DNA from: an uncultured Actinomycetota bacterium
GTDB lineage: Bacteria; Actinomycetota; Actinomycetes; Mycobacteriales; Mycobacteriaceae
Direction of reading: 5' to 3'
Length of the DNA stretch: 32,000 nt
Assembly (NCBI GenBank): GCA_963758775.1
Contig: CAVWWU010000010.1
Location: 1,325,346-1,357,345, forward strand
Shown here: positions 2,738 through 19,923 of the stretch, in pieces
Position numbering within the stretch: position 1 is the stretch's first letter
Layout of the letters: each line of letters starts with the position of its first letter
Position numbers and translations under genes: made by a program
The notes under the pieces: generated by a model
What the model was told of the DNA's origin: nothing
Databases searched by the model: none
What the model saw: the letters and a program-made list of their open reading frames with translations, nothing else

Positions 2738-2960
2738 CGTTGTCGTTTCCTTTCCATGAGTCCATGTGGGATATCAACTTCCTTGATACCACCGCCTCCG
2801 TCAATGTCAACCAACTTGATGGTGACCAGTGGCTGATATCGTCGCCGCGGGCCTGTCAGCGGTGCGCAGCGGGCCGCCGCGTGGTTTCATAACACCGCCC
2901 GCGGAATTTGCTTGGGGGATGACGCCGAGGTCGGCGTCCTGGTGGATTGGTGGTACGTGT

Positions 2961-3755
2961 ATGGATCGTCGCAGCATGTTGATGATGGCGGGGATGGGCA
3001 TGCTTGCCGGTGCGATCAACCTCCCCGAATCCCCACAGGCCACGGCTGCGCCCGGCGGATACATCTTCCAGGACGAATTCGACGGTCCGGCGGGCTCGCC
3101 TCCCGATCCGGCCAAGTGGACGATCCAGACCTGGCAGGACGACGTGTTCCCGCCGGTTGCGGGCATCTATCGCGACGACCGCCGAAACGTCTTTCAGGAC
3201 GGCAACTCCAACCTCGTCTTGGCCGCGACCCAGGAAAACGGCGAGTACTTCAGCGGGAAACTGCGCGGCAACTTCCGCAGCATGATCAACCAGACCTGGG
3301 AAGCGCGGATCAAGCTGGACTGCTTGTTCCCCGGCCTGTGGCCCTCGTTCTGGGGGGTCAACGAAGATCCGCTGCCGGACGGCGAGGTCGACATCTTCGA
3401 GTGGTACGGCAACGGCTCGTGGCCGCCGGGGACCACGGTGCACGCGGCATCAAACGGGAAAACCTGGGAGGGACGATCGATTCCCGGCCTGGTGGATGGC
3501 GGTTGGCACACCTGGCGCATGCACTGGGGCACGGAAGGGTTCCAATTCTCGCGCGATGGAGCGCAGTACTTCAGCGTCCCCAACAAGCCCATCCCCGTGC
3601 ACGGCAACCCGACCGACCTGCGCTGGCCGTTCAACAACCCCGGCTACTGGATGACGCCCATGTTCACCCTTGCGGTGGGTGGGGTTGGCGCCGGCGATCC
3701 GGCCGCGGGCACCTATCCGGCGACGATGCTCGTCGACTACGTGCGCATCTGGTAG
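2961..3755 (+). CDS. Secreted glycoside hydrolase family 16 (beta-glucanase/laminarinase-like) with a Tat-type signal
   Basis: GH16 catalytic motif E-x-D-x-x-E is present as GEVDIFEW. The N-terminus is MDRRSMLMMAGMGMLAGAINLPESPQATA, with a twin-arginine and an AxA-like site. Start is ATG 2961 (residue 45 of ORF 2829..3755). Confidence 0.85.
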   Translation: MDRRSMLMMAGMGMLAGAINLPESPQATAAPGGYIFQDEFDGPAGSPPDPAKWTIQTWQDDVFPPVAGIYRDDRRNVFQDGNSNLVLAATQENGEYFSGKLRGNFRSMINQTWEARIKLDCLFPGLWPSFWGVNEDPLPDGEVDIFEWYGNGSWPPGTTVHAASNGKTWEGRSIPGLVDGGWHTWRMHWGTEGFQFSRDGAQYFSVPNKPIPVHGNPTDLRWPFNNPGYWMTPMFTLAVGGVGAGDPAAGTYPATMLVDYVRIW

Positions 3756-5237
3756 CTACCGCGTCGCCTTGATGACCTGAACCAGGTTGAACTGCCAGCG
3801 TTCGACGAGCCGGAAACCCAGATCGTGCGGAACGGCGAACGCCGGTGTCACGCCGTAGACGGGACCGGGCGGTAGCGCCACGCCCTGCTCGTGGGCCGGC
3901 ACCGAGTTGTCGGCCTGGGTGATGATCCAGACCACGCGGCACTGGCTCAACGGCGTGGCGACCACCTCGGGAATGAGGTTGGTGTCGAACACGTCGTTGC
4001 GGTCGGTCGCCCGCTGCCACAGGGTGAGGTCGACCAGTTTCCGGTACGCATCGGGGCGCGCCGCAAGCAGCGGCCGCATCGGGGCGGGCATGAACGTCAC
4101 CGTGTCGTTGACGAGTAGGCAATCCCCCGGCGCCGCCTTGGCGGTGATCAGGTCGGCGACCTGGCTGTAGTCCATGCCGTATTTGGCGTACGGGTTACGT
4201 TGCGCTCTAAGGTAATTCGGCGCCGCGGCGATGGCGAAAAGAGATATCAGAGCGGTTGCCTGCCATGGTTTTGCCGCTAACGCGCCGACACAGACCCCGA
4301 GGATCAGCGCCATCGCCGGTGCGGTGAAGGACAGATACCGCGGCGTGTACACCGGGTGCACCACCGCGGCGGCAAGCACGATCAGCGCAGTCGGTATCAC
4401 GATCCACGCCACGGCCAAGGCAATAAGCTGCCGATCGAGTTTCGGAGATGTCCAGCGCCACAGCGCAATCGCCGCCAGGATGACCAGCGCCGACAGCACC
4501 GCGAACGGCGGGCAACGCTCAAAGTACTGCTGTACCAGCACGTCTTCGATGGTCCGGTGTCCGATTGGTGCGATCCATTTGATCTGCTGCACCTGCCCGA
4601 CGACCTCGATCACGAACGGCGCCAACGCGCACACCGTCAAACCCGACGTTACGGCGAACGGGGCGAGGCGAGTGCGGCGGAAGGCGCACATGAAGATGAT
4701 GTGCGCCAGTAACACCAGCGCCAGATACATGTCGAGCAGGATCGACAATGCCAGGACGGCCCCGTAAGACAGCCACCACCAACGACTTTCGCGCCGTCCG
4801 GCGGCGATGAGCAGCACGGTGAGCCACACGGCGGCCATCATCGACAGGGCATAGGGACGGGCCTCGATACCCGCCCACGTCGTGCGGGGCAGGATTCCGC
4901 ACAGCGCACCGGCGCTCAAAGCCACAGTGCGCGATGAGAACTGCTTGCCCAGCACGACGATTCCCGCCGCCGCGCCGCCGACGGCGAGGCCGCTCGGAGC
5001 GCGCGACCAGAACTCCGTGGGCGGAAAGATCTGAAACCAGCCGTGCATGAACAGGTAGTACAAGCCGTGGACGGCGTCGACATTGGCCAGCATCCGCCAC
5101 AGCTGACCCAGCGAGCGGCCGTAGGACGCGGAAATCGTGGCGGCCTCGTCGTACCAGAAGGACGGGCGGGCGGCGCCGGCCAGACTCACCACGGCGGCCA
5201 GCGCTCCGACAATCAACGGGTCAAGGCGCCGCGACAC
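3756..5237 (-). CDS. Polytopic GT-C fold membrane glycosyl/mannosyltransferase (GT39 / PMT_2-like)
   Basis: About 11 hydrophobic segments. First-loop acidic motif is SFWYDEAAT. A C-terminal soluble domain follows. Sequence is typical of mycobacterial 'glycosyltransferase family 39' proteins. Confidence 0.75.
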   Translation of the reverse strand: MSRRLDPLIVGALAAVVSLAGAARPSFWYDEAATISASYGRSLGQLWRMLANVDAVHGLYYLFMHGWFQIFPPTEFWSRAPSGLAVGGAAAGIVVLGKQFSSRTVALSAGALCGILPRTTWAGIEARPYALSMMAAVWLTVLLIAAGRRESRWWWLSYGAVLALSILLDMYLALVLLAHIIFMCAFRRTRLAPFAVTSGLTVCALAPFVIEVVGQVQQIKWIAPIGHRTIEDVLVQQYFERCPPFAVLSALVILAAIALWRWTSPKLDRQLIALAVAWIVIPTALIVLAAAVVHPVYTPRYLSFTAPAMALILGVCVGALAAKPWQATALISLFAIAAAPNYLRAQRNPYAKYGMDYSQVADLITAKAAPGDCLLVNDTVTFMPAPMRPLLAARPDAYRKLVDLTLWQRATDRNDVFDTNLIPEVVATPLSQCRVVWIITQADNSVPAHEQGVALPPGPVYGVTPAFAVPHDLGFRLVERWQFNLVQVIKATR

Positions 5238-7061: not shown

Positions 7062-7886
7062 GTGACCCTAGGGACGATCATGTCAGTCACCCCCTCACCC
7101 AAATTGCTTTGTGCCGCAGCGGCGGCGTCGCTCAGCGCGACGAGTTTGATGTTTGCGGCGCTCGCTGGCGCCAGTCCGATGCGCCCGCTCGACCCGCCCG
7201 GCGGCTGCGACAGTTACACCATGCCCGCCGGGCTCATCATCAAGCAGAGCGACGGCACTGTCATTACCGTCAACAATGGTGCGGGCGCGGACTTGAGCGG
7301 TGCGCAGGCGTCGTACACGACCAACGGCAAGGTGACGACCGGCAACGCGCACGGGGGCTCCGCGGGAGGAGTCAACCTCAACTTCTCCATCGACTGGAAC
7401 AACGGCCCGGGCGCCGGCGCCACCACCACCTACACCGGCGTTGTCACCAAAACCGGCAACGGGCAGGGCAACACCAGCAGCACCAAAGGTCCCTCGCTGG
7501 TCTGGTCCACCTCCCCGCAGACCTTCGGTTGCGTGATGAACAACCCGGCGCCTCAGCAACAACAGCAACAGCAAGCGCCGGTGGCCAACCCCAACCCCGC
7601 GCCGCCCGCGGGGCCGTCCATCAATGTGACCCCGCACCAGGGCAACCAGAACATCACCTTCGACGTGCAAAACACCTCGGCGGAGGACCTGAAATGCGTT
7701 TACAACGCGAAGAAACTCAGCGGTCAGATTGGGCCGCCGACAACGACGAAGAACTTCTCGCTGAAACCGAACGCGTCAACGACGCTGTCATTCGTCGAGA
7801 TTCCTGTCGGAACCACGTACCAGGTGGATATTTCGTGCACCGGCTCAGACGGCGGTGCGGTCTACTCGCATAACTTCAGCGGGTAG
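7062..7886 (+). CDS. Secreted protein of unknown function: two Cys-paired domains joined by a polyQ/Pro linker
   Basis: Signal-like N-terminus (KLLCAAAAASLSATSLMFAALAGASP). One Cys pair per half (C..C in GGCDSY...FGCVM, and LKCVY...ISCTG). Q7 run encoded at 7554-7574. G/C-rich third positions. Start is GTG 7062 or ATG 7080. Confidence 0.65.
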   Translation: MTLGTIMSVTPSPKLLCAAAAASLSATSLMFAALAGASPMRPLDPPGGCDSYTMPAGLIIKQSDGTVITVNNGAGADLSGAQASYTTNGKVTTGNAHGGSAGGVNLNFSIDWNNGPGAGATTTYTGVVTKTGNGQGNTSSTKGPSLVWSTSPQTFGCVMNNPAPQQQQQQQAPVANPNPAPPAGPSINVTPHQGNQNITFDVQNTSAEDLKCVYNAKKLSGQIGPPTTTKNFSLKPNASTTLSFVEIPVGTTYQVDISCTGSDGGAVYSHNFSG

Positions 7887-7901: not shown

Positions 7902-8990
7902 TCACCAGACAAAGACGGGCTTGACGACCTTGCCGGAGAGCACGTCGGCGACGGCGGTGTTGATGTCGCTGAACGCGTAGGTCGCGATCAGATCGTCGAC
8001 GTCGAATTCGCCGGACGCGTTCAGCTCGATCAGGCGCGGCACCATCTCGAGCGGGTCGGAGTCGCCCTCGATGCTGGACCTGATCACCTTGCCCGACTGC
8101 AGCAGGTCGATGGCGTCGATGGTGTACTCCTCGGCGCCGAGGCCGAGCGCGATCAGCGTGCCGCGGCTGCGCAGTGATTGCTGGGCCTGCTTGACGACGG
8201 CCGAGATCGCGGTGGTGTCGATCGCGTAGCTCGCGCCTCCGTCGGTTAGCTGTCGCACCTGCTCGACAACGTCTGTGGCGCTTGGGTCTACGCCGATCGC
8301 GCCGAACCTGGCCGCGGCATCGCGACGGCTCTGCAGCAGGTCGACCGCGACGATCGTGCCGACCTTCAGGTGCTTGGCGGCCGCGAGTGCGGCCAGGCCG
8401 ACCGCACCGGCGCCGTACACCACCAGGCTGTCGGCCGGGCTCGGCTTGAGCACGTTGAGCACGGTGCCGGCGCCGGTCTGAAAGCCGCACCCGTACGGCG
8501 CCACCCTGGTCAGGTCGACGGACTTGTCGACGACGACGCAGTTGTCGGCGTACGCGATCGCGTGCGCCGAAAGGCTGGACTGGCCAAAGAAGTTGCCGAA
8601 GACGGGCGAGCCGTCGCGGCTGTAGGTCGTCGAGCCGTCGGCGCGCATGCCCATATAGTTCAACATCATTGCGTTGCCGCAATAGCCGACGAGTCCGTTG
8701 GCGCAGACGGCGCAGGCGCGACAGGAGCGGAAGCTGAGCACCACATGGTCGCCGACCTGAACGCCGCTGACGCCCGGGCCCACCGCCTCGACGACGCCGG
8801 AACCCTCGTGGCCAAACACCCTCGGGAACATGACTTCCGGCAAAGTGTCCTTGAGGTGAAGATCGGTGTGGCAGAGCCCCGTTGCGACGATCCGGACGAG
8901 GATTTCGTCGTCGCGCGGGCCGTCGAGTTCTACCTCCTCCAGCGAAAATTCGTCGCCCTGCTGGTTGACAATCGCCACGGTTGTCTTCAT
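7902..8990 (-). CDS. Zn-dependent alcohol dehydrogenase (aryl/benzyl-alcohol dehydrogenase-like, MDR)
   Basis: Motifs present: GLCHTDLH, GHEGSGVVEAVG, structural-Zn cluster CRACAVCANGLVGYC, and Rossmann VVYGAGAVGLAA. AGGAG lies 9 nt upstream of the ATG. Confidence 0.9.
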   Translation of the reverse strand: MKTTVAIVNQQGDEFSLEEVELDGPRDDEILVRIVATGLCHTDLHLKDTLPEVMFPRVFGHEGSGVVEAVGPGVSGVQVGDHVVLSFRSCRACAVCANGLVGYCGNAMMLNYMGMRADGSTTYSRDGSPVFGNFFGQSSLSAHAIAYADNCVVVDKSVDLTRVAPYGCGFQTGAGTVLNVLKPSPADSLVVYGAGAVGLAALAAAKHLKVGTIVAVDLLQSRRDAAARFGAIGVDPSATDVVEQVRQLTDGGASYAIDTTAISAVVKQAQQSLRSRGTLIALGLGAEEYTIDAIDLLQSGKVIRSSIEGDSDPLEMVPRLIELNASGEFDVDDLIATYAFSDINTAVADVLSGKVVKPVFVW

Positions 8991-9080: not shown

Positions 9081-9311
9081 ATGTCTTCGCATCTGACCAC
9101 TGCACCCGAGGCGTTGACGGCGGCTTCTGCGGACGATCCCGGTGCTGGCCCTGTTTCGTCGGGCGGGGCACCGGTGGAAACGGCGGTCCTGGTGGTGCCG
9201 GCGGCGCTGCATCCCCGTAGGGGCGCTGCGGGTGATCCGCCTATCCGCGTTGTGCGACTGACGATTTCGTGCTTTCGTCGGCGGCTAGCGGTGGCCGCCG
9301 CCGCCCGATGA
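9081..9311 (+). pseudogene. Possible degenerate PE / PE_PGRS remnant
   Basis: GGAG-N6-ATG. The N-terminus MSSHLTTAPEALTAASADDPGAGP resembles the PE start M-S-F-V-x-x-x-P-E-A-L-x-x-A-A. The rest does not look like a PE domain. Another frame here reads GTGGNGGPGGAGGAA, which is PGRS-like. The ORF overlaps the 3' end of the convergent gene. Confidence 0.3.
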
Positions 9312-11042
9312 ACCACCACCGAAGCCGCCACCACCGAAGCCGCCGCCGCCGAAGCCGCCGCCGAGGCCGCCGCCGCCGAAGCCGCCGGACGGGCCACCAC
9401 CGAAGCCGCCGCCTCCGAAGGGTCCGCCGCCGCCCCCGCCGAACGGACCACCGCCGCCACCAAAGGGTCCGCCGCCCAGCGGACCGCCCGGGGCTGGGCC
9501 GGGCGCAGTAACGGGTCCGGCGCCGGGCCCGCCGGGGCCGGTCGGCGCACCGCCACCGGGAAGTCCGCCGCCACCGATCGGGGCGCCACCTTCGTGAGGT
9601 GCGCCAACACCGGGTGGCGTACCTCCCTCGGGAGGTGCTTCGCCGGGAGCTCCGTGGCTTGGGCCAGGCCCGCTAGCGGGTCCACCGTCGGGCCCGCTGG
9701 CCGGGGGAGGAGCGTGGACCGGTCCTGGGCCGTGCGAGTTGTTGGGAGGCGCACCGTGCTCGCCGGGATTGGGCCACGGCCCTTGCTGCGGATGGGGTTG
9801 ATGGATCGCCGGCGGGGACGGGTGTGGCGGAGCGTCGATCACCGGTGGGCTCGCGGGCAGGACGGGCACATGTATGTGAACCTGCGGAACGGGTAGGGGC
9901 GCGATCGGCGGGACCACCACCGAGATCGGAGGCGCAGGCGCAGCCGGAACCGGAGCTGCCGCAACAGGAGCCGGGGGCACTGGAGCCGCGGGCACCGGGG
10001 CCGGCGGAGCGGGAGCGGCCGGCGGCGGCGCGGTGGCGGGCGGACCCAAGGGCTTGGGCGCGGCCGCCTGCGTCGCCGCCACTTGCCCTGGCGCACGCTC
10101 GGAGCCTTGCTGAAATGGGGCGATCATGTTGCGAAGCGGGGACGGCAGCAGCCCGACGGTTGTGTGGACGCCGAGTGTCAGGGCTACCTCGAGCGCTATC
10201 ACCGCGGTGATGGCGACAACCGCCAACGAAGTTCCCACCAGTAGGACCGGTCTGCGACGCGGCTTGTCCGCTATGACGACAGTCGGCGCACCTTCCTCGT
10301 CGTCCATCGCGACGTCGTAGGCAAGCTCGTCATCGTCCAGCTCGGGGTCGCGTTGGTAGGCCAGCGCCGCCGTCGACGACGCGAACAACGGGGCGTTCGC
10401 CGAGGCCAGGGCCGCCCCACGGGCCAGTGCCGTCGCCGGCTCTTCGGGCGCGCTGACGGTCAGCGACGTCGCTTCTTCCAAAAGCGTCTTCATCGAGGCG
10501 ATGTCGACACCGCGGCCGACGAGAAACAGGCCATCCGGGGGCGTCGGCAGCTCGTCGAGCCCGGCGACCAGCTTGGTCAGTTCTGTGGCAGCTTCTTCGT
10601 GGAGCGCGGAGACGGAGCCGTCGGAAGTTTCGACGACGGCCAAAGTCGCGGTGTCCGGTTCGACGAAGACCATCGCGGTGCGCTCGTAACCCATTGCGCC
10701 ACCGACAAATTGAGTCAATGCGGTCGCGGCAAGAAACGCCGAGACCAGCATCACATTTTCCATCTTGTGGGCCGTCAGGGCCTCGCGCAACGCGGCCACT
10801 TCAAGCTGGTCGGTACACGCCACCCCGATGGCGGACAGTTCCAGGCCGGCGCTCGCCGCGTCGTCGCGAGTAGCCATGATGGCGGCGATCACCCGATCAG
10901 ACGCGCTGACGGTCGGGGAGTCGTCGTCGGCGAGGACGGCCATCTCGTTCTCGTTTACCGTTGTGCCATCGGCATTTTCGCCTTGCAACAGCACCATCTG
11001 AACGGACTCTGGCGCCATTGAAACTCCGAGCACGATGTCCAT
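9285..11042 (-). CDS. Membrane protein, paralog B: degenerate actin/Hsp70-like N-domain, TM helix, then a Pro-rich and Gly/Phe-rich tail
   Basis: GGGAGG-N7-ATG at 11042. The N-domain (~230 aa) is collinear with the neighbouring gene. TM helix is PRRRPVLLVGTSLAVVAITAVIALEVALTLG. The tail runs from AP-rich through PH-rich and GP-rich sections to (G)nF repeats ending GGGGHR*. Confidence 0.8.
   Translation of the reverse strand: MDIVLGVSMAPESVQMVLLQGENADGTTVNENEMAVLADDDSPTVSASDRVIAAIMATRDDAASAGLELSAIGVACTDQLEVAALREALTAHKMENVMLVSAFLAATALTQFVGGAMGYERTAMVFVEPDTATLAVVETSDGSVSALHEEAATELTKLVAGLDELPTPPDGLFLVGRGVDIASMKTLLEEATSLTVSAPEEPATALARGAALASANAPLFASSTAALAYQRDPELDDDELAYDVAMDDEEGAPTVVIADKPRRRPVLLVGTSLAVVAITAVIALEVALTLGVHTTVGLLPSPLRNMIAPFQQGSERAPGQVAATQAAAPKPLGPPATAPPPAAPAPPAPVPAAPVPPAPVAAAPVPAAPAPPISVVVPPIAPLPVPQVHIHVPVLPASPPVIDAPPHPSPPAIHQPHPQQGPWPNPGEHGAPPNNSHGPGPVHAPPPASGPDGGPASGPGPSHGAPGEAPPEGGTPPGVGAPHEGGAPIGGGGLPGGGAPTGPGGPGAGPVTAPGPAPGGPLGGGPFGGGGGPFGGGGGGPFGGGGFGGGPSGGFGGGGLGGGFGGGGFGGGGFGGGSSGGGGHR
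9288..9480 (-). repeat. Roughly 15-nt periodic GGC/GAA-type repeats encoding a (G4-5 F/L) low-complexity C-terminus
   Basis: The plus strand reads ...accaccgaagccgccaccaccgaagccgccgccgccgaagccgccgccgaggccgcc... This encodes ...GPFGGGGGPFGGGGGGPFGGGGFGGG...GFGGGGFGGGGFGGG. Confidence 0.55.
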
Positions 11043-11112
11043 GACCACGCCTCCCAAACCTCTTGCACCACGCCGGGTGCTAACCGATCGTCCCCAAAGA
11101 AGCTGTGTCGGA

Positions 11113-11143
11113 GTCCTGGCGTAGTTATGTGGCTTTTATGAAG
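11113..11143 (-). promoter_or_regulatory. Conserved 31-nt upstream element, copy 1 (candidate promoter or leader of paralog B)
   Basis: gtcctggcgtagttatgtggcttttatgaag matches 27/31 positions with 13358-13388, which lies upstream of paralog A. Its near edge is 71 nt upstream of the ATG at 11042. Confidence 0.4.
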
Positions 11144-13263
11144 CTCGACGGCACGCCGCGAGTAGCGAGGGCGGTGCCGGCCGCCCTCGCTACCGCCAAC
11201 GTCACCCGTCGTCGCCGGAGCTGGCACTGCCGCTGTCGCTGCTGCCGCCGCTGTCGCTGCTGCCGCCGCTGTCCGTGCTGCCGCCATTGTCGCTGGGCGA
11301 GCTGACGCTGCCGCTGTCGCTGGGTGAGCTGGCCGGCCCGCTGTCCGGGGCGCTGGCCGGACCGCTGCTGTCGGGGGCGCTGGCCGGACCGCTGCTGTCG
11401 GGGGCGCTGGCCGGACCCGCTGCTGTCCGGAACGCTGGCCGGTCCGCTGCTTTCGGGTACGTTGCCACCGCCGCTGGCCGGTCCGCTGCTTTCGGGGACG
11501 TTGGCGCCGCCGCTGGCCGGTCCGCTGCTTTCGGGGACGTTGGCGCCGCCGCTGCCCGGCCCGCCGCTTTCGGGGACGTTGCCACCACCGACAGGTCCGC
11601 CGCCGCTATGCGGCTCACCGCCGCCGACAGGTCCACTGCCGCTGTGCGGCTCACCGCCGCCGACCGGCCCACTGCCCTCAGGCGGGGCGCCGCCGGGCGT
11701 TCCGTGGCCCGGGCCGCCGCTATGGGGCTCGCCGCCGCCGACGGGTCCGCCCTCAGTCGGGGGGCCGCCGGGACCTCCATGGCCGGGTCCGGGGCCGCTG
11801 ATGGGTCCGCCACCGTGCGGCCCGCCGCCGGGACCACCGTGGCCCGGTCCCGGGCCGCTAGCCGGGCCGCCGTCTCCCGGATCGCCGGGGCGCCCACCGC
11901 CCCTGCCCGGATTGGGTTGCGGCCCTTGGTCCGGAGGAGGTTGATTCGGTGGCGGCGCCTGCGGTGGGGAAACCTGGATCGGCTGCGATGAGTCGGCAGG
12001 CGGCGACGGTTGCATCGGCGCCTGAACCGCCGGCGGGCTCGCCGGCGCGTCGGGCGTCGGTACCTGCGGCAACGGAGCCGGCGCCAGCGGGGGGATCACC
12101 ACCGGAACCGGCACAGCCGGCCCCGCGGGACCCGGCACAGCCGCGGCCCCGGGCGCCGGGGCCGGCGGAGCCGCCGGCAGTGCGCCCACCGGCTGACCCA
12201 ACGGCTTGGCCACCGCCGCCTTCTTGGCCGCCACCGGTCCCAGCTGCGGCGCGATGGCCTGCTCGACTGGAGCGATGAAGTTCTGGATCGGGGCCGGCAA
12301 CAAGCCAACCGTGGTCCGCAGGCCAAGGCCCAGCGCGACCTCCAGCGCCAGCGCAGCGCTGATGACGCCCACCGTCACCGCACTTCCGACCAGTAAGACC
12401 CGCCTCCGACGGGGCGTCTCTTCCTCGGGAGCGTCGAGGATGACGGTGGGGGTACTGGCTTCTTCGTCTTCGACAGCGCTGTAGGCGACGTCATCCTCGC
12501 CTTCCTGGGTATCGGCGACGCCCAGATAGTCCGGAATGGCCGATGCGTCGAGGGAACCCGTGCCGGGGTCCTGCCCGTAGGCAAGCACCGTGGTCGCCGA
12601 CGCGAACAACGCCGCGGACGCCACGGCCGCACCGCGCGCCAGCGCCGTCTCCGGTTCTTCCGGTGCACTCACGGCAAGCGACGTCGCCGACTCCAATTGC
12701 GTTTTGATGGAAGCGATCTCGACGCCGCAGCCGACCAGAACCAGGCCGGCCGGGGGCTCGGGCAGCTCGTCGAGCCCGGCGACCAGATCCAGGAGCTCTG
12801 CGGTCGGTGCTTCGCGGACATCGGAGACGGAGCCGTCGGAGGTGTCGACGACGGCCAGCGTTGCCGTATCGGGTTCGACGAAGAGAACCGCGGTCCGGTC
12901 GTAACCCATTGTCCCGCCGACGAGTTGGGTCAGCGACGTTGCGGCCTGGAAAGCCGAGACCAGCGTGACACTCTCCAGCTCGTTGGTGGCCAGCGCGGCG
13001 CGCAGCTCCGCTGCTTCCGCTTCGAGCTGGTCGGTGCATGCCACCCCGACGGCGGACAGCTCCAAGCCCGCAGCGGTAGCGTCGTCGCGGGTGGCCAGGA
13101 TTGCGGCAAGCACCCGGTCGGACGCTCTGGCGGTCGGCGAGTCCTCGGCAATGGCGCTGATGAATTCTTTCTCGTCTACCGTTGCGCCATCGGCATTTTC
13201 ACCTTGAAGTAATACCATGTGAACCGAGTCAGGTGCCATCGAAATTCCAAGCACGATATCCAC
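11125..13263 (-). CDS. Membrane protein, paralog A: degenerate actin/Hsp70-like N-domain, TM helix, Pro-rich and Gly/Pro/Ser/Glu repeat tail. The 3' end is affected by a 1-nt frameshift; the alternative ancestral stop is at 11202.
   Basis: GGAGG-N7-GTG at 13263 (VDIVLGISMAPDSVHMVLLQGENADG). TM helix is PRRRRVLLVGSAVTVGVISAALALEVALGLG. After the CCC run at 11416-11418 the reading frame leaves the repeat frame and yields an Arg/Gln tail that runs into the next gene's upstream element. Confidence 0.75.
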   Translation of the reverse strand: MDIVLGISMAPDSVHMVLLQGENADGATVDEKEFISAIAEDSPTARASDRVLAAILATRDDATAAGLELSAVGVACTDQLEAEAAELRAALATNELESVTLVSAFQAATSLTQLVGGTMGYDRTAVLFVEPDTATLAVVDTSDGSVSDVREAPTAELLDLVAGLDELPEPPAGLVLVGCGVEIASIKTQLESATSLAVSAPEEPETALARGAAVASAALFASATTVLAYGQDPGTGSLDASAIPDYLGVADTQEGEDDVAYSAVEDEEASTPTVILDAPEEETPRRRRVLLVGSAVTVGVISAALALEVALGLGLRTTVGLLPAPIQNFIAPVEQAIAPQLGPVAAKKAAVAKPLGQPVGALPAAPPAPAPGAAAVPGPAGPAVPVPVVIPPLAPAPLPQVPTPDAPASPPAVQAPMQPSPPADSSQPIQVSPPQAPPPNQPPPDQGPQPNPGRGGGRPGDPGDGGPASGPGPGHGGPGGGPHGGGPISGPGPGHGGPGGPPTEGGPVGGGEPHSGGPGHGTPGGAPPEGSGPVGGGEPHSGSGPVGGGEPHSGGGPVGGGNVPESGGPGSGGANVPESSGPASGGANVPESSGPASGGGNVPESSGPASVPDSSGSGQRPRQQRSGQRPRQQRSGQRPGQRAGQLTQRQRQRQLAQRQWRQHGQRRQQRQRRQQRQRQCQLRRRRVTLAVARAAGTALATRGVPSSFIKAT
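11232..11661 (-). repeat. Nested in-frame tandem repeat arrays inside paralog A
   Basis: 18 bp x3 at 11232-11285 (GGSSDS). 27 bp x3 at 11347-11428 (DSSGPASAP), where the third unit is 28 bp. 39 bp x4 at 11434-11589 (GGANVPESSGPAS). 36 bp x2-3 from 11590 (GGGEPHSGxGPV). Units were read directly from the sequence. Confidence 0.85.
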
Positions 13264-13596: not shown

Positions 13597-15567
13597 CTAG
13601 TCGGGTACGTCGAAATACGTTGTGCCAACCCCGCTTGGGCTGTAGGACATGTAGATCGGGATCTGCGAGAAGATGTAGTTGCCGGTGTTGAAGGTGCTGC
13701 CGGGCGCTTCGACCGACGTCGAAGGATAGACACTGGGGTCGAGGGTTGCAGTCTGCGTGTACAGCGGTACGAAACCGTTGTTCGTGGTGTTGATGGCCTC
13801 GACGGTGAACGTGACCCCGTCTGGAAGAGGCGCGCCCGGCAGGATCCCGGAGATGTTGTTGGGGAGCAGATTCTGGGGGATGTCGCCCCCCACGCCGCCG
13901 GTATCGATCGTCGACATGTTGACGGGCTGAAAGCCCGTGCTGACGCCGTCGTAGCTCACCGAGATATAGAGCTGACCAGTTTCCGGCGCTCCGGAGACGG
14001 ACCCGAAGGCGGTCAGCGGATTGTCACCGAACTGGAAATAGTGACTGGGTTGGTTGATCAGCACACCGTCACCCAGAGTGCTGGGCAACTGTTGGACGAA
14101 GCTGGTCGGGAAGTTCTCAGCCTCACTGCCACTTGTCGCCACGGTGTTGGCGCCCGTACCCAGGACGCCTTCCCAGTCGCTTTGCGGCTTTTCCACCCCG
14201 AGGCCGTTGGTTTCATTGGTGATGACGCCGATCGTCATCGGCTTGGTCACAATGCCATTGCCCAGGTTCAACTCGGCGGTGTAGGCGTCGTAGGTGGTGA
14301 TGGTCTGCAAGGCGGGGTCGGAGTCCGGGCCGAATTTGTATGTCTCTCCCACGTCGGTCGGAGTTCCGAGCTCTGCCACGTTTACGTCCTGTTCGGGAAT
14401 CAGGGTGGTGGTGGAGCCGGTGTCGATGAACGCCCTGGACACCGGGCCGTCGTCGACGGAAATGTCCAATTCAGGCCGGGTTTCATCCATGATCAGCTTG
14501 ACTGTCGCCGGGCCGCCTTCTGCACCGGCAGCGCCGGCGTGGCCGAACAGGCCGCCGCGACCACCAAGTCCACCGCTGGGCGCGGTCACGTTGCCCGAAT
14601 ACACCCCGCCGTCGCCGCCGTCGCCGCCGTTGCCGATCAACTGCCCGCCATGACCACCGTTGCCGCCGTCGGCGAATGCGCCGCCCTCGCCTCCGGCGCC
14701 TCCGCGGCCGATCCACTGAGCGTTCCCGCCGGCGCCGCCGGCCGAGAACGGGCCGCCGATTCCGCCGGTGCCACCAGCGCCCAGCAGTAGGCCGCCGGTC
14801 CCGCCGGTGCCACCGACACCGCCGCTTTCGATGGTGTCGTTGAGGTCGATGTTGAACGTTCCGCCTTGGCCGCCGGTGCCGCCTTTGCCGAATAACACGG
14901 CGTTGCCACCGGTTCCGCCGATTCCGCCGTTCAGGCCATCGCCTGCGGCGCCGCCGAGGCCACCGATGCCGCCGTTGCCGAACAGCAGGCCCCCGGTACC
15001 CCCGCGACCACCGGCGCCGCCGGTCCCGCCCATGCCGCCGACGCCGCCATTCCCGATCAGCCCAGCCGCGCCGCCGGCGCCGCCGGTGGCCCCGTCCGCG
15101 GTGCTGGCACCGCCGTGTCCGCCGTTGCCGATAAGGATCCCGCCGGCCCCGCCGGCCGTTCCCATACCTTGGGCGTTGGTGGTGCCGTTGACGCCGTTGC
15201 CGATCAGCGGCCGGCCGACCAGTAAGTCGGTTGGCGCATTGACGACCCCCAGCACTCCTTGCTCGAGGGCCTGTAGCGCCGGCGAGTTGGCCGCCTCGGC
15301 GAGCTGATAGGCCAGCGCACTGGAACCCAGCGTCTGGACGAAATCGGTGTGAAAGGCTGCGGCCTGCGCACCGAGCGCCTGATAGTTCGACCCGTACTCG
15401 GAGAACAACGCCGCGACTGCCGCGGAGATCTCATCACCGGCCGCGGCAACGACCCCGGTTGTGGGCGCGGCGGCGCCGGCCTGTGCCGCGCTGATCGCGG
15501 AGCGAAGGCTCTCCAGGCTTTTGGCCGCATCGGCAACGACTTCCGGCGCCGCAACGACATACGACAT
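13597..15567 (-). CDS. PE_PGRS protein with a C-terminal pepsin-like aspartic protease domain (PecA / PE_PGRS35-type)
   Basis: PE domain is MSYVVAAPEVVADAAKSLESLRSAISAAQAGAAAPTTGVVAAAGDEISAAVAALFS. PGRS GGxGG repeats follow. Two Asp-Thr-Gly motifs are present (AFIDTGSTTTLIP and STIDTGGVGGDIP). Start is ATG 15567 (residue 21 of the track ORF). Confidence 0.9.
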   Translation of the reverse strand: MSYVVAAPEVVADAAKSLESLRSAISAAQAGAAAPTTGVVAAAGDEISAAVAALFSEYGSNYQALGAQAAAFHTDFVQTLGSSALAYQLAEAANSPALQALEQGVLGVVNAPTDLLVGRPLIGNGVNGTTNAQGMGTAGGAGGILIGNGGHGGASTADGATGGAGGAAGLIGNGGVGGMGGTGGAGGRGGTGGLLFGNGGIGGLGGAAGDGLNGGIGGTGGNAVLFGKGGTGGQGGTFNIDLNDTIESGGVGGTGGTGGLLLGAGGTGGIGGPFSAGGAGGNAQWIGRGGAGGEGGAFADGGNGGHGGQLIGNGGDGGDGGVYSGNVTAPSGGLGGRGGLFGHAGAAGAEGGPATVKLIMDETRPELDISVDDGPVSRAFIDTGSTTTLIPEQDVNVAELGTPTDVGETYKFGPDSDPALQTITTYDAYTAELNLGNGIVTKPMTIGVITNETNGLGVEKPQSDWEGVLGTGANTVATSGSEAENFPTSFVQQLPSTLGDGVLINQPSHYFQFGDNPLTAFGSVSGAPETGQLYISVSYDGVSTGFQPVNMSTIDTGGVGGDIPQNLLPNNISGILPGAPLPDGVTFTVEAINTTNNGFVPLYTQTATLDPSVYPSTSVEAPGSTFNTGNYIFSQIPIYMSYSPSGVGTTYFDVPD

Positions 15568-15698
15568 CTGACCCCCCAAACGACTGCATAATCCGGTGAG
15601 ATTGGGCGGTCGCCCCCGATGCGACAAAACGGATATTAATGGCGCTGCTCAAAAATCGCGCGGCTTTTGGAGATCTTGTTTTGCCGATGTCGGCCGGG

Positions 15699-17024
15699 CT
15701 AGGCAGTGACTCGATAGACGTCGATCTCTTCGGGCAGGCCCTTGAGGCGTTGTGGTCCAAGGCTTTCGAAGGCCAAGCCCGATCCGGCGGACAAGTCGCG
15801 GACGGTGCGACTGGCCAACACCTCGCCCGCAGCGGCCAACGCGCCGATGCGGGCGCCGGTGTGCACCGCCATGCCGCTCCACTCATCGCCGCGGCGTTCG
15901 CATTCGCCGGTGTGGACGCCCGCACGGATCCGGATGCCGCGCGTGGCGAGGGCCGGGATGAGTTCCAGCGCGCACCGGGCGGCCTTGGTCGGCCCGTCGA
16001 AGAGCGCGAAGATCCCGTCTCCGGTGTGTTTCGCGCGCCGGCCGCCGAACTTCTCCAGCACCCAGTCGACGACCTTGTCATGCGCATCGAGCTGGCGACG
16101 CCACTGTGCATCGCCACGCGCACTGAGTTGTTCGGTGGAACCGACGATGTCGGTGAAGAGCACCGTCTTGATCACTCGTTCGTCGATAGCGGCAATCGAA
16201 GTACCGCAGACGAAGTCGAGGACGGCCGAACCCACCGCCTCATCCACGAGGGAGTGCGGACCCTCGGGCAGCGTCTTGAACTGCGACCCGGGAATGGCGG
16301 CCGCCATCGCCTTCGCGCCCTCCAACGGAGCGACTCGATCGTTCGACCGCACCAGGACAAGCGTTGGGGTGCGGATCGAACCGAGAATGCCGCGAACATC
16401 GATCTCCAGGAGCGCCTGCCACAGCCACGCGGCCATTGTCGGGCTCGCGCTCACCCGTTGGTACCGGCCATACAGGTCGCGAAATCCTGGTATATCGGCA
16501 ATCTCGCCGAAGAACAGCTCAGCGAGCGCGCCTGCGCCCCAATCATTTTCGATCTCTTCCAGATGCTCGGTCTTCTCTTCGGCGGTAAATCCCCAGGGGT
16601 GATCCGGCAACTCTTGAGAAAACCGTGCCAGCGCGCCGTACATCACCAGCGACTGAACGCGTTCCGGATACGTCGCCGCGAACAACAGGCTCATCGGACC
16701 GCCCTCGGACATGCCGAAAAGGGCGGGGCGATCGGCGTTGGTGGCGTCGAGAACGGCGTGAAGGTCATCCAGTCTCTCGTCGAGGGACGGGACGTGGGCG
16801 GCCGGATCGGAGAGGCCAGTGCCGCGTTTGTCCCACACGATGAGTCGGGTTGCCTCCGCCAGCTGTTCGGTGACGGCGGTGATCGGGCTGGCCGGCTCGT
16901 CGTTGAGCTCGACGTTGCTGAACCAACCGGGGTTCCACACCAGCGTCGTGTCGCCCTCTCCGAACTCGCGGTACGCGAGCCGCACGGAGCCGTTGCGTGC
17001 ATAGCGCACCCGCCGGTCACTCAT
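15699..17024 (-). CDS. Alpha/beta-hydrolase fused to a class III adenylate/guanylate cyclase domain (LipJ/Rv1900c-like architecture)
   Basis: The N-half carries the GxSxG nucleophile elbow FGMSEGG. The C-half carries cyclase motifs VLFTDIVGSTE, HTGDGIFALFDGP and RIRAGVHTGE. Start is ATG 17024 (MSDRRVRYARNG). Confidence 0.85.
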   Translation of the reverse strand: MSDRRVRYARNGSVRLAYREFGEGDTTLVWNPGWFSNVELNDEPASPITAVTEQLAEATRLIVWDKRGTGLSDPAAHVPSLDERLDDLHAVLDATNADRPALFGMSEGGPMSLLFAATYPERVQSLVMYGALARFSQELPDHPWGFTAEEKTEHLEEIENDWGAGALAELFFGEIADIPGFRDLYGRYQRVSASPTMAAWLWQALLEIDVRGILGSIRTPTLVLVRSNDRVAPLEGAKAMAAAIPGSQFKTLPEGPHSLVDEAVGSAVLDFVCGTSIAAIDERVIKTVLFTDIVGSTEQLSARGDAQWRRQLDAHDKVVDWVLEKFGGRRAKHTGDGIFALFDGPTKAARCALELIPALATRGIRIRAGVHTGECERRGDEWSGMAVHTGARIGALAAAGEVLASRTVRDLSAGSGLAFESLGPQRLKGLPEEIDVYRVTA

Positions 17025-17074
17025 ATCGACATCTTGGCACCACCAGCCGCGATGGGAGGTACCGTGCATCACAA

Positions 17075-18946
17075 ATGTCCGGCTACCGAGAACTGTTCAC
17101 GGCGAGCATCATCGACCCCGAATCCTTCTGGGCGCAGGCCGCACGGGCCGTCACGTGGCTGCAACCGCCGCAGCGGGTGCTCGACGACAGCCATCCGCCG
17201 TTCTACCGGTGGTTCCCCGACGCCACACTCAACACCTGCGCCAACGCGCTGGACCGGCACGTCGCCGACGGCCGCGCCGAGCAGGCGGCGCTGATCTACG
17301 ACTCGCCGGTGACCGGCAGCCAGCGCACCTACACCTACGGCGAGCTGCTGGAGCAGACCGCCCGGTTCGCCGGTGCATTGCGTGCACTCGGCGTCGCCAA
17401 GGGCGACCGCGTGGTGCTCTACCTGCCGATGATTCCCGAGGCGGTCATCGCCATGCTGGCCTGCGCGCGGCTCGGCGCCGTGCACTCGGTGGTGTTCGGC
17501 GGCTTCGCCGCACACGAGCTCGCCACGCGCATCGACGACGCGCGCCCGACCGTCATCGTCACCGCGTCGTGCGGAATCGAGCCGTCGGGATTGGTGGAGT
17601 ACAAGCCGATGCTGGACGCGGCGCTCGAGTCCGCGCACCACAAACCGGGCAGCTGCGTCGTCGTGCAGCGGGATCAGCACCGCTGCGCGCTCACCGCGGG
17701 GCGCGACGTGGAGTGGCAGGCCGTGATGGCCGACAGCGAGCCCGCCGAGGCGGTGGAGGTGGCGGCCACAGACCCGTTGTATGTGCTGTACACGTCGGGC
17801 ACGACTGGCAAACCGAAGGGCATCGTGCGCGACAACGGCGGGCACGCCGTCGCGCTGCTGTGGAGCATGCGGCACATTTACGACATCCAGCCCGGCGAAA
17901 TCTTCTGGGCGGCATCGGATGTCGGCTGGGTCGTTGGGCATTCCTACATCGTCTACGGGCCGCTGCTGCTCGGCGCCACGACGCTGCTCTACGAGGGCAA
18001 GCCGGTTGGCACACCGGATCCGGGCGCATACTGGCGAGTGGCGTCCGAGCATCGGGTCAAGGCATTGTTCACCGCGCCCACCGCGATCCGCGCGATCCGC
18101 AAGGAAGACCCGGAGGGCGTGCACGTGGAGAAGCACGACCTGTCCGCGCTGCAGTACCTGTTCCAGGCAGGCGAACGCCTCGACCCCGACACCTACTCGT
18201 GGGTGTCCGGCAAGCTCGGCATCCCGGTCGTCGACCACTGGTGGCAGACCGAAACCGGCTGGGCCATCGCCGCCAATCCGATGGGTGTGCAACGGTTTCC
18301 GATCAAGCCGGGCTCACCGACGCTGCCGATGCCGGGCTACGACGTGTGCGTGCTGCGCGCCGACGGGTCTTCGTGCGACGCCGGGGAAGAGGGCGCGATC
18401 TGCGTGAGACTGCCGCTGCCGCCGGGTACGCTGCCCACGCTCTGGGGCGACGACGCCCGCTACGAGGCCTCGTATCTGCGCGAGCATCCCGGCTACTACC
18501 TGACCGGGGACGGCGGATATCTCGACGACGACGGGTACCTCTACGTGCTGGGCCGCATCGACGACGTGATCAACGTTTCCGGACATCGCCTGTCCACGGG
18601 CCCCATCGAGGCGCTCGTGGCCGCGCACCCGGCGGTCGCCGAATGCGCCGTCATCGGAGTCGCCGACGACATCAAGGGGCAGGTTCCGCGCGCGCTCGTC
18701 GTGCTCAAGCGCGGCGCGTCGGCCGACGGCCTGGCCGAGGATCTCATCGCGGCGGTGCGCCGTGAGATCGGACCCGTGGCCTGCTTCAAACAGGTGGATG
18801 TCGTTCCGGCTTTGCCGAAAACGCGGTCGGGCAAGATCCTGCGGAAAACGATGCGCGACATAAGCCAGGGCAAAGACGGGCCCGTGCCGTCGACCATCGA
18901 GGATCCCAAAGTGCTGCAATTGATTCGCCCGGTACTGCAGGCATAG
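17075..18946 (+). CDS. prpE: Propionate--CoA ligase-type acyl-CoA synthetase (PrpE/ACSS3-like)
   Basis: N-terminus is SIIDPESFWAQAARAVTWLQPPQRVLDDSHPPFYRWFPDATLNTCANALDRH. AMP-binding motif is YTSGTTGKPKG. PrpE-type block is FGGFAAHELATRIDDARPTVIVTASCGIEPSGLVEYKP. Start is ATG 17075. Confidence 0.8.
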   Translation: MSGYRELFTASIIDPESFWAQAARAVTWLQPPQRVLDDSHPPFYRWFPDATLNTCANALDRHVADGRAEQAALIYDSPVTGSQRTYTYGELLEQTARFAGALRALGVAKGDRVVLYLPMIPEAVIAMLACARLGAVHSVVFGGFAAHELATRIDDARPTVIVTASCGIEPSGLVEYKPMLDAALESAHHKPGSCVVVQRDQHRCALTAGRDVEWQAVMADSEPAEAVEVAATDPLYVLYTSGTTGKPKGIVRDNGGHAVALLWSMRHIYDIQPGEIFWAASDVGWVVGHSYIVYGPLLLGATTLLYEGKPVGTPDPGAYWRVASEHRVKALFTAPTAIRAIRKEDPEGVHVEKHDLSALQYLFQAGERLDPDTYSWVSGKLGIPVVDHWWQTETGWAIAANPMGVQRFPIKPGSPTLPMPGYDVCVLRADGSSCDAGEEGAICVRLPLPPGTLPTLWGDDARYEASYLREHPGYYLTGDGGYLDDDGYLYVLGRIDDVINVSGHRLSTGPIEALVAAHPAVAECAVIGVADDIKGQVPRALVVLKRGASADGLAEDLIAAVRREIGPVACFKQVDVVPALPKTRSGKILRKTMRDISQGKDGPVPSTIEDPKVLQLIRPVLQA

Positions 18947-19923
18947 TGCGCAGGACCATTGACTGGGACGGCGACGCGGTCACGATCATCGACCAGACCG
19001 TGCTGCCCCGCCAGTATCGCGTTCTCACGCTGCGGACCGTCGACGAGTTGATCGACGCGATCCGGCGCCTGGCGGTGCGCGGCGCCCCGGCGCTGGGCGC
19101 GGCGGGCGCGCTGGGTGTGGTGCTCGCGATGCGCGAGGCGGGCGACATCCGGGATTTGCAAGAACGAGCCGAACGGGTCGCGAAGGCCCGACCCACCGCC
19201 GTCAACCTCAGCTGGGGAGTCGCGCGTGCGCTGGGCAAGCTCGACGAGGGCGTCGACGCCGTGCTCGCCGAGGCATTGGAAATCCTCGACGAGGACGAAC
19301 GCCTCAACCGCGCCGCTTCGGCCCACGCCGCCGAAATTGTTCTCGCACAATGTGATCGACGTCCGCTGCGGCTGCTCACCCACTGCAACGCCGGTCATCT
19401 CGCCACCGTCTCCTGGGGAAGCGCGCTCGGCGTCGTCTGGCACCTGCACGAGCGCGGACTGGTCGAGTCGGTGTTCGTTGACGAGACACGTCCGCTGCTG
19501 CAGGGCGCCCGGCTCACGGCGTGGGAGCTGGCGCAGGCCGGCGTGCCCTACCGGGTGCAGCCGGACGGCGCGGCGGCGGCGGCGATGGCGCGCGGCCTCG
19601 TCGACTGCGTGCTCGTCGGCGCCGATCGGATCGCGGCCAACGGCGACGTCGCCAACAAGATCGGCACCTACGGGCTGGCCATCGCGGCGCAGCATCACGA
19701 CGTGCCGCTGGTGGTGGTCGCACCCTCGTCCACGGTCGACGCCTCGCTGGCCACCGGCGCCGAGATCGCCATCGAGGAACGCGCGCCCGACGAGCTCAGG
19801 GCGTTCACCGGCACCGCGATCACCCCGGCCGACGCGGACGTCTTCAACCCGGCCTTCGACGTGACCCCGGCCGCGCTGATCACCGCCGTCGTCACCGAGC
19901 ACGGTCGGTATCAGCCGCGCTAA
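18946..19923 (+). CDS. mtnA: S-methyl-5-thioribose-1-phosphate isomerase (eIF-2B alpha/beta/delta-like family)
   Basis: Motifs present: VRGAPALGAAGA, THCNAGHLAT (catalytic Cys) and GADRIAANGDVANKIGTY (catalytic Asp). GTG start shares its G with the prpE TAG stop (TAGTG). Confidence 0.85.
   Translation: MRRTIDWDGDAVTIIDQTVLPRQYRVLTLRTVDELIDAIRRLAVRGAPALGAAGALGVVLAMREAGDIRDLQERAERVAKARPTAVNLSWGVARALGKLDEGVDAVLAEALEILDEDERLNRAASAHAAEIVLAQCDRRPLRLLTHCNAGHLATVSWGSALGVVWHLHERGLVESVFVDETRPLLQGARLTAWELAQAGVPYRVQPDGAAAAAMARGLVDCVLVGADRIAANGDVANKIGTYGLAIAAQHHDVPLVVVAPSSTVDASLATGAEIAIEERAPDELRAFTGTAITPADADVFNPAFDVTPAALITAVVTEHGRYQPR

Follow-up and report, generated by a model that had tools for sequence, protein, structure and literature searches.

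Two adjacent genes in a 32,000-nucleotide stretch of DNA from an uncultured Actinomycetota bacterium of the family Mycobacteriaceae (assembly GCA_963758775.1, contig CAVWWU010000010.1, positions 1,325,346-1,357,345 of the forward strand; hereafter, the window) encode paralogous proteins, P1 and P2, each of which consists of an N-terminal domain, an acidic linker, a single transmembrane (TM) helix and a long Pro/Gly-rich tail. The N-terminal domain, of about 220 amino acids (aa), is modelled as a minimal version of the ASKHA (actin/Hsp70/sugar-kinase) fold. We propose, with a confidence that is about evenly poised, that P1 and P2 are non-catalytic actin-fold adaptors, with one TM helix and an envelope-side extension, that function in envelope biogenesis or homeostasis. 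Both are further members of a catalogued, little-studied protein family, DUF7159. The key features of the two proteins, the relationships within the family and the alternative interpretations are described below.

The gene pair and its N-terminal domain

The genes were delineated from the list of open reading frames (ORFs) and the Pfam PF23717 matches, complemented by frame analysis in the case of P2. P1 (9285..11042; 585 aa plus the stop codon) starts with an ATG at 11042, with GGGAGG 8 nucleotides upstream, and P2 (11125..13263; 712 aa as read) starts with a GTG at 13263, with GGAGG upstream. All features of the pair discussed here are on the minus strand. The original prediction, made from the sequence by eye, left the strand unstated, but its coordinates for the two ORFs are exact and the N-termini that it quoted match the translations to the letter. 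P1 and P2 are 61% identical over 337 aa (BLASTP, E 1e-109) and, as had been noticed, are collinear paralogs across the N-domain, the acidic linker, the RRR-flanked TM helix and the juxtamembrane motif TTVGLLPxPxxNxIAP; the N-domains alone are about 70% identical (tblastn). The ratio of nonsynonymous to synonymous substitution rates (dN/dS, Nei-Gojobori method) between the paralogs is 0.25 for the N-domain and 0.35 for the linker, TM helix and juxtamembrane region, which indicates purifying selection on both genes; between P1 and its closest orthologs, it is 0.16-0.17. Together with the paralogy, these ratios argue that P1 and P2 are maintained coding genes rather than chance ORFs of GC-rich DNA.

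Profile comparison assigns both proteins to Pfam DUF7159, above the curated threshold and across the model: P1 matches PF23717 with E 6e-14 and 52.6 bits (model positions 1-198 of 206) and P2 with E 7e-12 and 45.9 bits (positions 1-199 of 206), the gathering cutoff being 27 bits. The original prediction missed this catalogue entry, but its statement that no function has been defined experimentally for this architecture stands, in that the literature that could be searched yielded no experiment defining a function of a DUF7159 protein.

The fold of the N-domain was predicted with AlphaFold2, using aa 1-335 of P1 with a 72-sequence alignment and, in a separate run, the full-length protein. Over aa 1-220, the predicted local distance difference test (pLDDT) score is above 90, and the same fold was reproduced in the full-length run. 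The model consists of two halves, each with the order beta-beta-beta-alpha-beta-alpha-beta-alpha. The strands (E) and helices (H) are E2-9, E13-20, E28-35, H47-64, E68-76, H79-91, E97-101 and H102-117 in the first half, and E121-127, E131-138, E144-151, H152-164, E171-176, H181-191, E195-197 and H202-215 in the second. A Foldseek search of the PDB with this model produced 296 matches at E<=1e-3. Every one of the best 50 is an ASKHA protein (E 1e-8 to 1e-6, probability 1.00), and they comprise HgdC/BcrAD-type activators, ROK kinases and repressors, EutJ, PilM (E 3e-7), Ppx/GppA, MreB, the nucleotide-binding domain of DnaK, type III pantothenate kinase and YeaZ. No one ASKHA family stands out: the highest sequence identity among the best matches, to EutJ (3h1q), is 17%, and the TM-scores are modest, in part because a third of the model is disordered. 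The proposal that the N-domain is a minimal actin/Hsp70 core is borne out by the pLDDT above 90, the duplicated fold order and the top 50 matches, all of them ASKHA. The domain spans aa 1-232 in both proteins, that is, 10347..11042 in P1 (from AlphaFold2 and Foldseek) and 12568..13263 in P2, where it is assigned from the similarity to P1 together with the same Pfam match and sub-threshold MreB_Mbl matches. In the AlphaFold2 model, there is no room for the subdomain insertions of actin-like proteins (IB/IIB or 1C) in a domain of about 220 aa.

Profile searches of PDB sequences, with and without the tails, returned low-complexity noise and one sub-threshold match to MreB. The other Pfam-level matches are also sub-threshold, with sequence E values of 0.07-0.4: one to MreB_Mbl, over the C-terminal 45 residues only (12 bits vs the cutoff of 27), and one to a 55-residue stretch of HscA (13 bits vs the cutoff of 743). 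Pfam HSP70 has no match at E<=1 in P1 or P2, and no substrate-binding domain follows the N-domain.

The nucleotide-binding motifs can be traced in a weak hidden Markov model alignment to Thermotoga maritima MreB (1jce). In this alignment, V-E128-P-D-T-A-T133-L corresponds to V-D-I-G-G-G-T-T, V-G176-(R/S)-G178-V-D to T-G-G-G-S-L, and EEPxTALARGAA to EEPLTAVAKGAG, the same register as in the three alignments (of EPDTAT, VGxG and EEPxTALARGAA) that had been made by eye. The phosphate-1 site, the register of which was read off the secondary structure of the model rather than from a superposition, is the beta1-beta2 segment D-I-V-L-G-V-S-M-A-P-x-S. It has no Asp two residues before the strand-end Gly and lacks the DxG(T/S)(T/S) motif of ASKHA proteins, in place of which V4, L5, G6, S8 and P11 are near-invariant. 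The phosphate-2 motif DxGGGT is likewise absent: of its conserved positions, the acidic one and the Thr persist, but none of the three Gly does. The replacement of the Gly-rich phosphate loops, by VSMAP and EPDTAT, is consistent between the model and the MreB alignment, in agreement with the original prediction. The adenosine motif retains two of its three Gly, G176 and G178, both invariant or near-invariant in the family, and the helix after beta5 begins S101-A-F where Hsp70 and MreB have E-P. Across the family, T133, G176, A205-L206-A207 and G209-A210-A211 are invariant, and E128, P129, G178 and E200-E201-P202 are nearly so. Of the ASKHA motifs, only the adenosine GxG and the C-terminal helix EEPxxALARGAA remain.

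With the phosphate loops replaced and the GxG alone surviving, the N-domain is likely to be a non-catalytic ASKHA domain or adaptor. Alternatively, it could be a working nucleotide-dependent ASKHA enzyme, such as a membrane-tethered Hsp70-like ATPase or kinase, coupled across the membrane to the tail. The conserved cluster of E128, T133, G176, G178 and G209 at the usual cleft positions is compatible with such an enzyme, as are the sub-threshold MreB_Mbl and HscA matches and the UniProt-derived labels 'ATP binding' and 'Hsp70 family protein domain' on Rv0312, a probable relative from Mycobacterium tuberculosis discussed below. Yet the phosphate-1 site without DxG has a near-invariant Pro11 in the beta1-beta2 hairpin, the phosphate-2 segment (EPDTAT) contains no Gly, Ser101 occupies the position of the Glu in the 'EP' motif of Hsp70 and MreB, neither a Pfam HSP70 match nor a substrate-binding domain is present, and the PDB profile searches gave nothing significant. 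On balance, an active enzyme appears distinctly unlikely.

Linker, membrane helix and ABC-ATPase fusions

The acidic linker of P1 (aa 233-264; 10251..10346) has pLDDT below 50. About 10 residues before the Arg cluster, the family shares the motif (D/E)(D/E)L-A-Y-S-A-V-P-D-(E/D)(D/E)-A-(D/E)-A-x-T-V-V-(I/V/L), which is nearly invariant amid an otherwise variable linker; the segment LAY(S)AVxD(E/D)(D/E)AxAxT254-V-V-I of this family motif is located at 10272-10325 in P1 and is followed by RRR. By column counts, A241 and Y242 are each conserved in 69 of 71 sequences, D247 in 70 of 72 and T254 in 67 of 68, and an I, V or L occurs three positions after T254 in 44 of 67. The pattern pT-x-x-(I/L/V), where pT is phosphothreonine, is the classic ligand of FHA domains.

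Each protein contains a single TM-grade segment by the Kyte-Doolittle scale, in P1 the only one outside the fold. The P1 helix spans aa 265-292 (10167..10250; 19-residue mean 2.62; AlphaFold2 helix at 269-289), and the P2 helix, preceded by RRRR, spans aa 289-315 (12319..12399; 19-residue mean 2.36). RRR stands immediately on the N-side of the TM helix, and in 416 family members, an average of 2.7 Lys and Arg is present in the 15 positions that precede the helix vs 1.65 after it. Neither P1 nor P2 has a signal peptide, given that the proteins begin with beta1 of the fold.

Further information on topology comes from three family members (P0122, P0135 and P0169) in which the DUF7159 domain is fused directly to a nucleotide-binding domain of ATP-binding cassette (ABC) ATPases of the LolD/MacB/FtsE type. 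All three lack the TM helix and the tail, and the second half of their DUF7159 domain occurs as two or three repeats. P0122, a 743-aa protein found on 4 contigs, combines one full DUF7159 domain with two extra copies of the second half and the ABC ATPase. Its gene lies at 471-2702 in two metagenome contigs (L012 and L013) and at 1939-4170 in a third (L014), and is followed by a gene for an 847-aa duplicated FtsX permease; a large nonribosomal peptide synthetase/polyketide synthase cluster occupies the opposite strand at these loci. Fusion to a cytoplasmic ABC ATPase independently supports a cytoplasmic location of the DUF7159 domain. An N-in/C-out topology, with the domain in the cytoplasm and the tail outside, as originally predicted, is supported by the Arg cluster before the TM helix, the lack of a signal peptide and these natural fusions.

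This predicted architecture resembles those of GspL and PilM-PilN, where one TM helix connects an actin-fold domain in the cytoplasm to an extension on the envelope side. The actin-fold domain of GspL has lost nucleotide binding and docks an ATPase, and the DUF7159 domain, too, is associated with an ATPase, to which it occurs fused. The likeness is architectural only: P1 and P2 have no Pfam T2SSL or PilM match, contain a disordered Pro/Gly tail instead of a folded periplasmic domain, and have no secretion or pilus genes near them in the window. With MreB, FtsA, EutJ and Hsp70, P1 and P2 share the core fold, and the 'GxG...EEPxxAxAxGAA' stretch aligns with residues 279-323 of MreB, but they comprise only the core of about 220 aa, without IB/IIB-type insertions and with degenerate phosphate loops, and are anchored by a true TM helix, not an amphipathic one. 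TonB has a TM anchor on the N-terminal side and a long Pro-rich segment that spans the periplasm; P1 and P2 also have one TM anchor followed by a long Pro-rich segment, possibly an extended periplasmic spacer. In contrast to TonB, they lack a folded C-terminal domain and ExbBD-like partners, and their folded part is cytoplasmic, so that the orientation is reversed.

Tails, the 3' end of P2 and the upstream element

The predicted extracytoplasmic tail of P1 (aa 293-585; 9288..10166), delimited from composition, the AlphaFold2 model and DNA repeats, consists of the juxtamembrane motif HTTVGLLPSPLRNMIAP, a Pro/Ala-rich half and a Gly/Phe-rich half that ends in GGGGHR; in the full-length model, it is devoid of predicted secondary structure, with pLDDT values of 35-64. 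The tail of P2, in the corrected reading explained below, comprises 371 aa (11205..12318; from translation and tandem repeats) and runs from a Pro/Ala-rich part through a Gly/Pro/His part and NVPESSGPASGG and SSGPASAPD repeats to a Ser/Asp/Gly-rich end. Gly, Pro and Ala make up 28%, 26% and 13% of the P1 tail, and Gly, Pro and Ser 24%, 23% and 14% of the corrected P2 tail. Both are encoded by tandem DNA repeats, with periods of 15 and 27 nucleotides in P1 and of 27, 36, 39, 60 and 75 nucleotides in P2, which explain the variation of tail length and the frameshifts. In family members with clean C-termini, with the tail divided into tenths, Pro accounts for 34-42% of tenths two to six and Gly for 51-54% of the last three; the Gly-rich end also contains His, Phe and Ser, and the terminus is often GGHR. 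The 17 clean tails that end in HR, HH or RH are 121-308 aa long (median 161), which places the tails of P1 (293 aa) and P2 at the long end of the family.

The length of 712 aa originally given for P2 is correct as read, but the last 96 codons follow an extra G, and the protein is likely to comprise 686 aa. These codons encode an R/Q-rich sequence (SGQRPRQQRSGQRP...FIKAT*) that appears after an abrupt change from NVPESSGPAS repeats. P2 leaves the repeat frame, within a 27-nucleotide tandem array, at a GGG run with one extra G at 11416-11418: the unit at 11406-11424 reads AGCAGCGGGTCCGGCCAGC, in contrast to AGCAGCGGTCCGGCCAGC in the two units that follow. Read in the +1 frame, the array continues (SSGPASAPDSSGPASAPDSS...SGDDG*) to a TGA at 11202-11204, which is, judging from the reading frames, the probable true end of P2. 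Past this stop, the third frame encodes GGSEGGRHR at 11164-11199, similar to the family C-terminus ...GGESGGHR*, a hint that the P2 3' end may have undergone more than one indel. The extra G could be either a sequencing error or a real mutation.

The stop codon of P2 as read falls within a conserved element upstream of P1 (11084..11143); the same element also precedes P2 (13329..13388), which argues that this region is non-coding. The element of about 60 nucleotides (CTTCATAAAAcCCACATAACTnCGGCAGGACTCCGACACAGCTTCCCCGGCGACGATCAG), in which CTTCATAAAAGCCACATAACT...CACAGCTT...ACGATCGG are recognizable, was aligned between P1, P2 and the orthologs at five related loci (L001-L005), and a partial version (CTTCATAAG...ACATAA) is found before two more distant paralogs. 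Its invariant CACAGCUUCCC can pair with the Shine-Dalgarno sequence GGGAGGCGUG; the fold z-scores are not significant. Rfam searches around P1 and P2 gave chance-level matches only, and scans for sigma-70 promoters and terminators gave nothing informative.

The derailment of the last part of the P2 tail by a one-base insertion raises the question of whether P2 is a decaying duplicate, with P1 alone functional. In the same direction point the corrected end, SGDDG*, which lacks the usual GGHR terminus of the family, and the closest syntenic genomes, which have an ortholog of P1 only. Against decay, the dN/dS of 0.25 applies to the P2 N-domain, and the start codon, ribosome-binding site, upstream element, TM helix and about 300 of the 371 aa of the tail before the shift are all intact. 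Furthermore, the frameshift lies in a G-run within a repeat array, a classic site of sequencing error, and database entries often show R-rich shifted tails of this kind. We consider decay of P2 quite improbable. Many deposited DUF7159 proteins are partial or end in Arg/Trp/Cys-rich sequence (P0004, P0006, P0009, P0014, P0030, P0043 and others; L011, 406-4563). Such ends are typical of GC-rich Pro/Gly repeats read out of frame. The repeat-rich tails of this family are often frameshifted in assemblies, so that database lengths and C-termini are not to be trusted.

As at least half of each protein consists of the tail, this part could itself be the functional one, with P1 and P2 being length-variable, Pro/Gly-rich structural or surface proteins of the cell wall, in spirit like PE_PGRS proteins or plant glycine-rich wall proteins, and the cytoplasmic domain serving as an anchor or oligomerisation plug. 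Its construction from tandem DNA repeats, the length range of the 17 clean tails, the recurrent family C-termini with GGGHGGFGGGHR-type Gly/His/Phe repeats, the conserved prolines and short motifs along the tail, and the presence of a homolog in a reported surface proteome all fit this possibility. Conversely, the N-domain is the most conserved part of the proteins, with dN/dS of 0.16-0.25 and many invariant residues, and the fusion proteins keep this domain and dispense with the TM helix and the tail. Moreover, database tails are often frameshifted where the N-domains are intact, much of which is probably sequencing error. A primary role of the tail seems to us unlikely.

Family, loci and proposed role

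Word-indexed searches retrieve approximately 2,600-2,700 homologs; among the matches listed, all carry PF23717, and all named homologs belong to Mycobacterium, Mycolicibacterium or unclassified Mycobacteriaceae or Mycobacteriales. An exhaustive phmmer search against 1.84 billion representatives at 50% identity gave 636 matches at E<=1e-3. The family is apparently small and, as far as names show, lineage-restricted, and its members share the same succession of N-domain, acidic linker, RRR-flanked TM helix and Pro/Gly tail. The exact P1 sequence has no database record by exact look-up, and the best match is 79-87% identical among the matches listed, which indicates that the copies of the source species are not on record. 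Homolog searches were run with three queries (P1, an M. basiliense homolog and a member of the Mycolicibacterium-type subfamily); no M. tuberculosis or M. smegmatis protein is among the best 120 matches of each, and two cluster look-ups added no useful further names for M. tuberculosis relatives.

A core locus of the family seems, from gene order, to lie near udgA, dcd and a YkuD gene. On a contig of M. avium subsp. paratuberculosis, three tandem DUF7159 genes are located directly upstream of udgA, which is followed by genes for an MDMPI-family protein, an rmlA-like nucleoside triphosphate transferase, a YibE/F-family protein, an aspC-like aminotransferase and a large Fe-S/CCG-domain protein; a complete Mycobacterium chromosome has the order dcd ... 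DUF7159 ... YkuD. We take this locus to be the Rv0309-Rv0322 region of M. tuberculosis H37Rv, which holds Rv0312, and DUF7159 genes occupy the syntenic position in M. avium, another Mycobacterium and M. abscessus. P1 and P2 reside in a different, paralogous locus, between a LipJ-like cyclase and a Zn-dependent alcohol dehydrogenase, as opposed to the core locus with MAB_4296c and, probably, Rv0312/MSMEG_0692. In M. tuberculosis, a GH16 gene, Rv0315, lies near Rv0312, and a GH16 glucanase-like gene (2829-3755, plus strand) is close to P1 and P2 as well, as is a PMT_2-family glycosyltransferase gene (3756-5237, minus strand); the occurrence of GH16 near DUF7159 in both places may be a coincidence.

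Rv0312 has been described as a Pro/Thr-rich protein with one TM helix and an Hsp70-family domain, the annotations 'ATP binding' and 'Hsp70 family protein domain' being derived from UniProt (PMC11898655, PMC11126594), so that an Hsp70-like, ATP-binding annotation of the probable M. tuberculosis member is already in circulation. Its M. smegmatis ortholog MSMEG_0692, also with one TM helix, was found only in formaldehyde-crosslinked complexes of FhaA, together with MviN, CwsA and TtfA (PMC11898655). Rv0312 appears in a list of the MtrA regulon (PMC11126594), and MAP3800, which is 68% identical to Rv0312, shows a fold change of -10.9 in a FurA-regulon table from M. avium subsp. paratuberculosis (PMC4319475). 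Synteny and these published descriptions suggest that Rv0312 and MSMEG_0692 probably belong to DUF7159, which lends indirect support to the suggestion, in the original prediction, that Rv0312 may be related.

In a study of SigD in M. abscessus (PMC13537577), the one paper found in which DUF7159 turns up, nine genes depend strongly on SigD, and MAB_4296c, which shares a transcript with udgA, is among them. Envelope functions are enriched in this regulon, and of the intergenic sites considered, that of MAB_4296c has the highest SigD chromatin immunoprecipitation (ChIP) score. MAB_4296c also features in a list of surface proteins from M. abscessus biofilms (PMC11925935).

The SigD connection bears on yet another interpretation, under which P1 and P2 are transmembrane signalling proteins or anti-sigma-like regulators, the disordered outside tail sensing the state of the envelope and the cytoplasmic domain sequestering or releasing a regulator. 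A family member is a top SigD ChIP target, and the architecture parallels that of mycobacterial anti-sigma factors such as RsdA, in which a cytoplasmic domain is followed by one TM helix and a Pro/Ala-rich outside segment. However, P1 and P2 contain no anti-sigma domain detectable with Pfam, no sigma-factor or regulator gene adjoins them or is found in the related loci inspected, and the window contains no match to the SigD promoter motif GTAACR-N15-18-CGAT, so that, by this motif test, the SigD link of M. abscessus does not transfer to P1 and P2. Such a regulatory function appears very improbable.

The immediate neighbors of the pair, all on the minus strand, are the Zn-dependent alcohol dehydrogenase (7902-8990) on one side and, on the other, a PE-PGRS protein with a C-terminal aspartyl-peptidase-like domain (PE, PGRS and PE-PGRS_C; 13597-15627), which separates P2 from the LipJ-like hydrolase-cyclase (15699-17072). 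The three closest syntenic loci (L001-L003), from metagenome-assembled genomes of uncultured Mycobacterium, consist of the cyclase, one DUF7159 gene and the alcohol dehydrogenase. The DUF7159 domain at these loci is 79-85% identical to that of P1 and 67-73% to that of P2; P2 and the PE-PGRS gene are absent and look like a lineage-specific addition. Other genomes have 1-3 DUF7159 copies per locus, in tandem or divergent. The possibility that the pair is always tandem is contradicted by these single and variable copies, which make the tandem pairing lineage-specific.

Two ORFs considered as conserved neighbors, 17069-18292 and 18541-20457 on the minus strand, were rejected as R-rich wrong-strand readings of plus-strand genes. 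The window also encodes tandem paralogs of Sap (sulfolipid-1-addressing protein, PF11139; 5596-6267 and 6296-6976, plus strand), a pair that is kept in L001-L003, and a 274-aa ORF (7062-7886, plus strand) with a hydrophobic N-terminus, a run of seven Gln ahead of a Pro-rich segment and no Pfam match, which is 67% conserved in L001 and partly conserved in L003. A second PE-PGRS gene (21614-23986, minus strand) accounts for the extreme GC content (0.81) and the GC-skew dip at 22001-23000.

Returning to the adaptor interpretation, we envisage that the N-domain would mediate docking or oligomerisation without catalysis, rather than act as an ATPase, and would bring cytoplasmic partners to the membrane. 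The Rosetta-stone fusions suggest one candidate partner, a LolD/MacB/FtsE-type (type VII) ABC ATPase; the linker motif and the interactome suggest another, the FHA protein FhaA, which might bind phosphorylated Thr254-x-x-(I/V/L). The Pro-rich rod and the Gly-rich end of the tail would reach into the cell wall, and the working mode would be like that of GspL or PilM-PilN, an actin-fold adaptor with one TM helix and an envelope-side extension. The notion of an envelope-spanning tether or signalling device, voiced in the original prediction, is speculation.

Several observations weigh against the adaptor interpretation. The data on FhaA, SigD and MtrA come from different paralogs and different species, with the membership of Rv0312 and MSMEG_0692 deduced from synteny and descriptions, and no SigD promoter motif is present upstream of P1 or P2. 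Surface-proteome lists include ribosomal proteins too, which makes the support from the detection of MAB_4296c weak. Fusion to the ABC ATPase is confined to 3 of the 512 sequences seen, none of the neighboring genes recurs consistently as a partner across the five inspected loci, and the phosphothreonine/FHA idea is drawn purely from a conserved motif. Finally, because E128, T133 and the GxG are kept, the domain may have residual nucleotide binding or even slow hydrolysis.

In its most far-reaching form, which we regard as unlikely, the proposal casts DUF7159 as the mycobacterial counterpart of the FtsA/GspL/PilM adaptors. The family would then consist of multi-paralog pseudo-ATPase scaffolds that are recruited to FhaA and the elongation/division machinery when a Ser/Thr kinase phosphorylates the conserved linker Thr and/or dock type VII ABC ATPases, with a repeat-encoded, length-tunable Pro/Gly tail that extends through the periplasm into the arabinogalactan-mycolate layers and couples cytoplasmic control to the outer envelope.

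New findings are a confident minimal-ASKHA model with an explicit motif register, the fusions to ABC ATPases, the conserved Thr motif of the linker, the apparent core locus next to udgA and the frameshift in P2. Mycobacteria have a uniquely thick envelope and, to our knowledge, lack the usual actin-like organisers FtsA and MreB. The published data that tie DUF7159 members to envelope control are scattered: the SigD dependence of MAB_4296c, the crosslinking of MSMEG_0692 to FhaA and the presence of Rv0312 in the MtrA regulon. If the adaptor model is wrong, P1 and P2 simply add another two copies to an abundant domain of unknown function. If it is true, the family would be a missing physical link, specific to this pathogen lineage, between cytoplasmic regulation and the cell wall.

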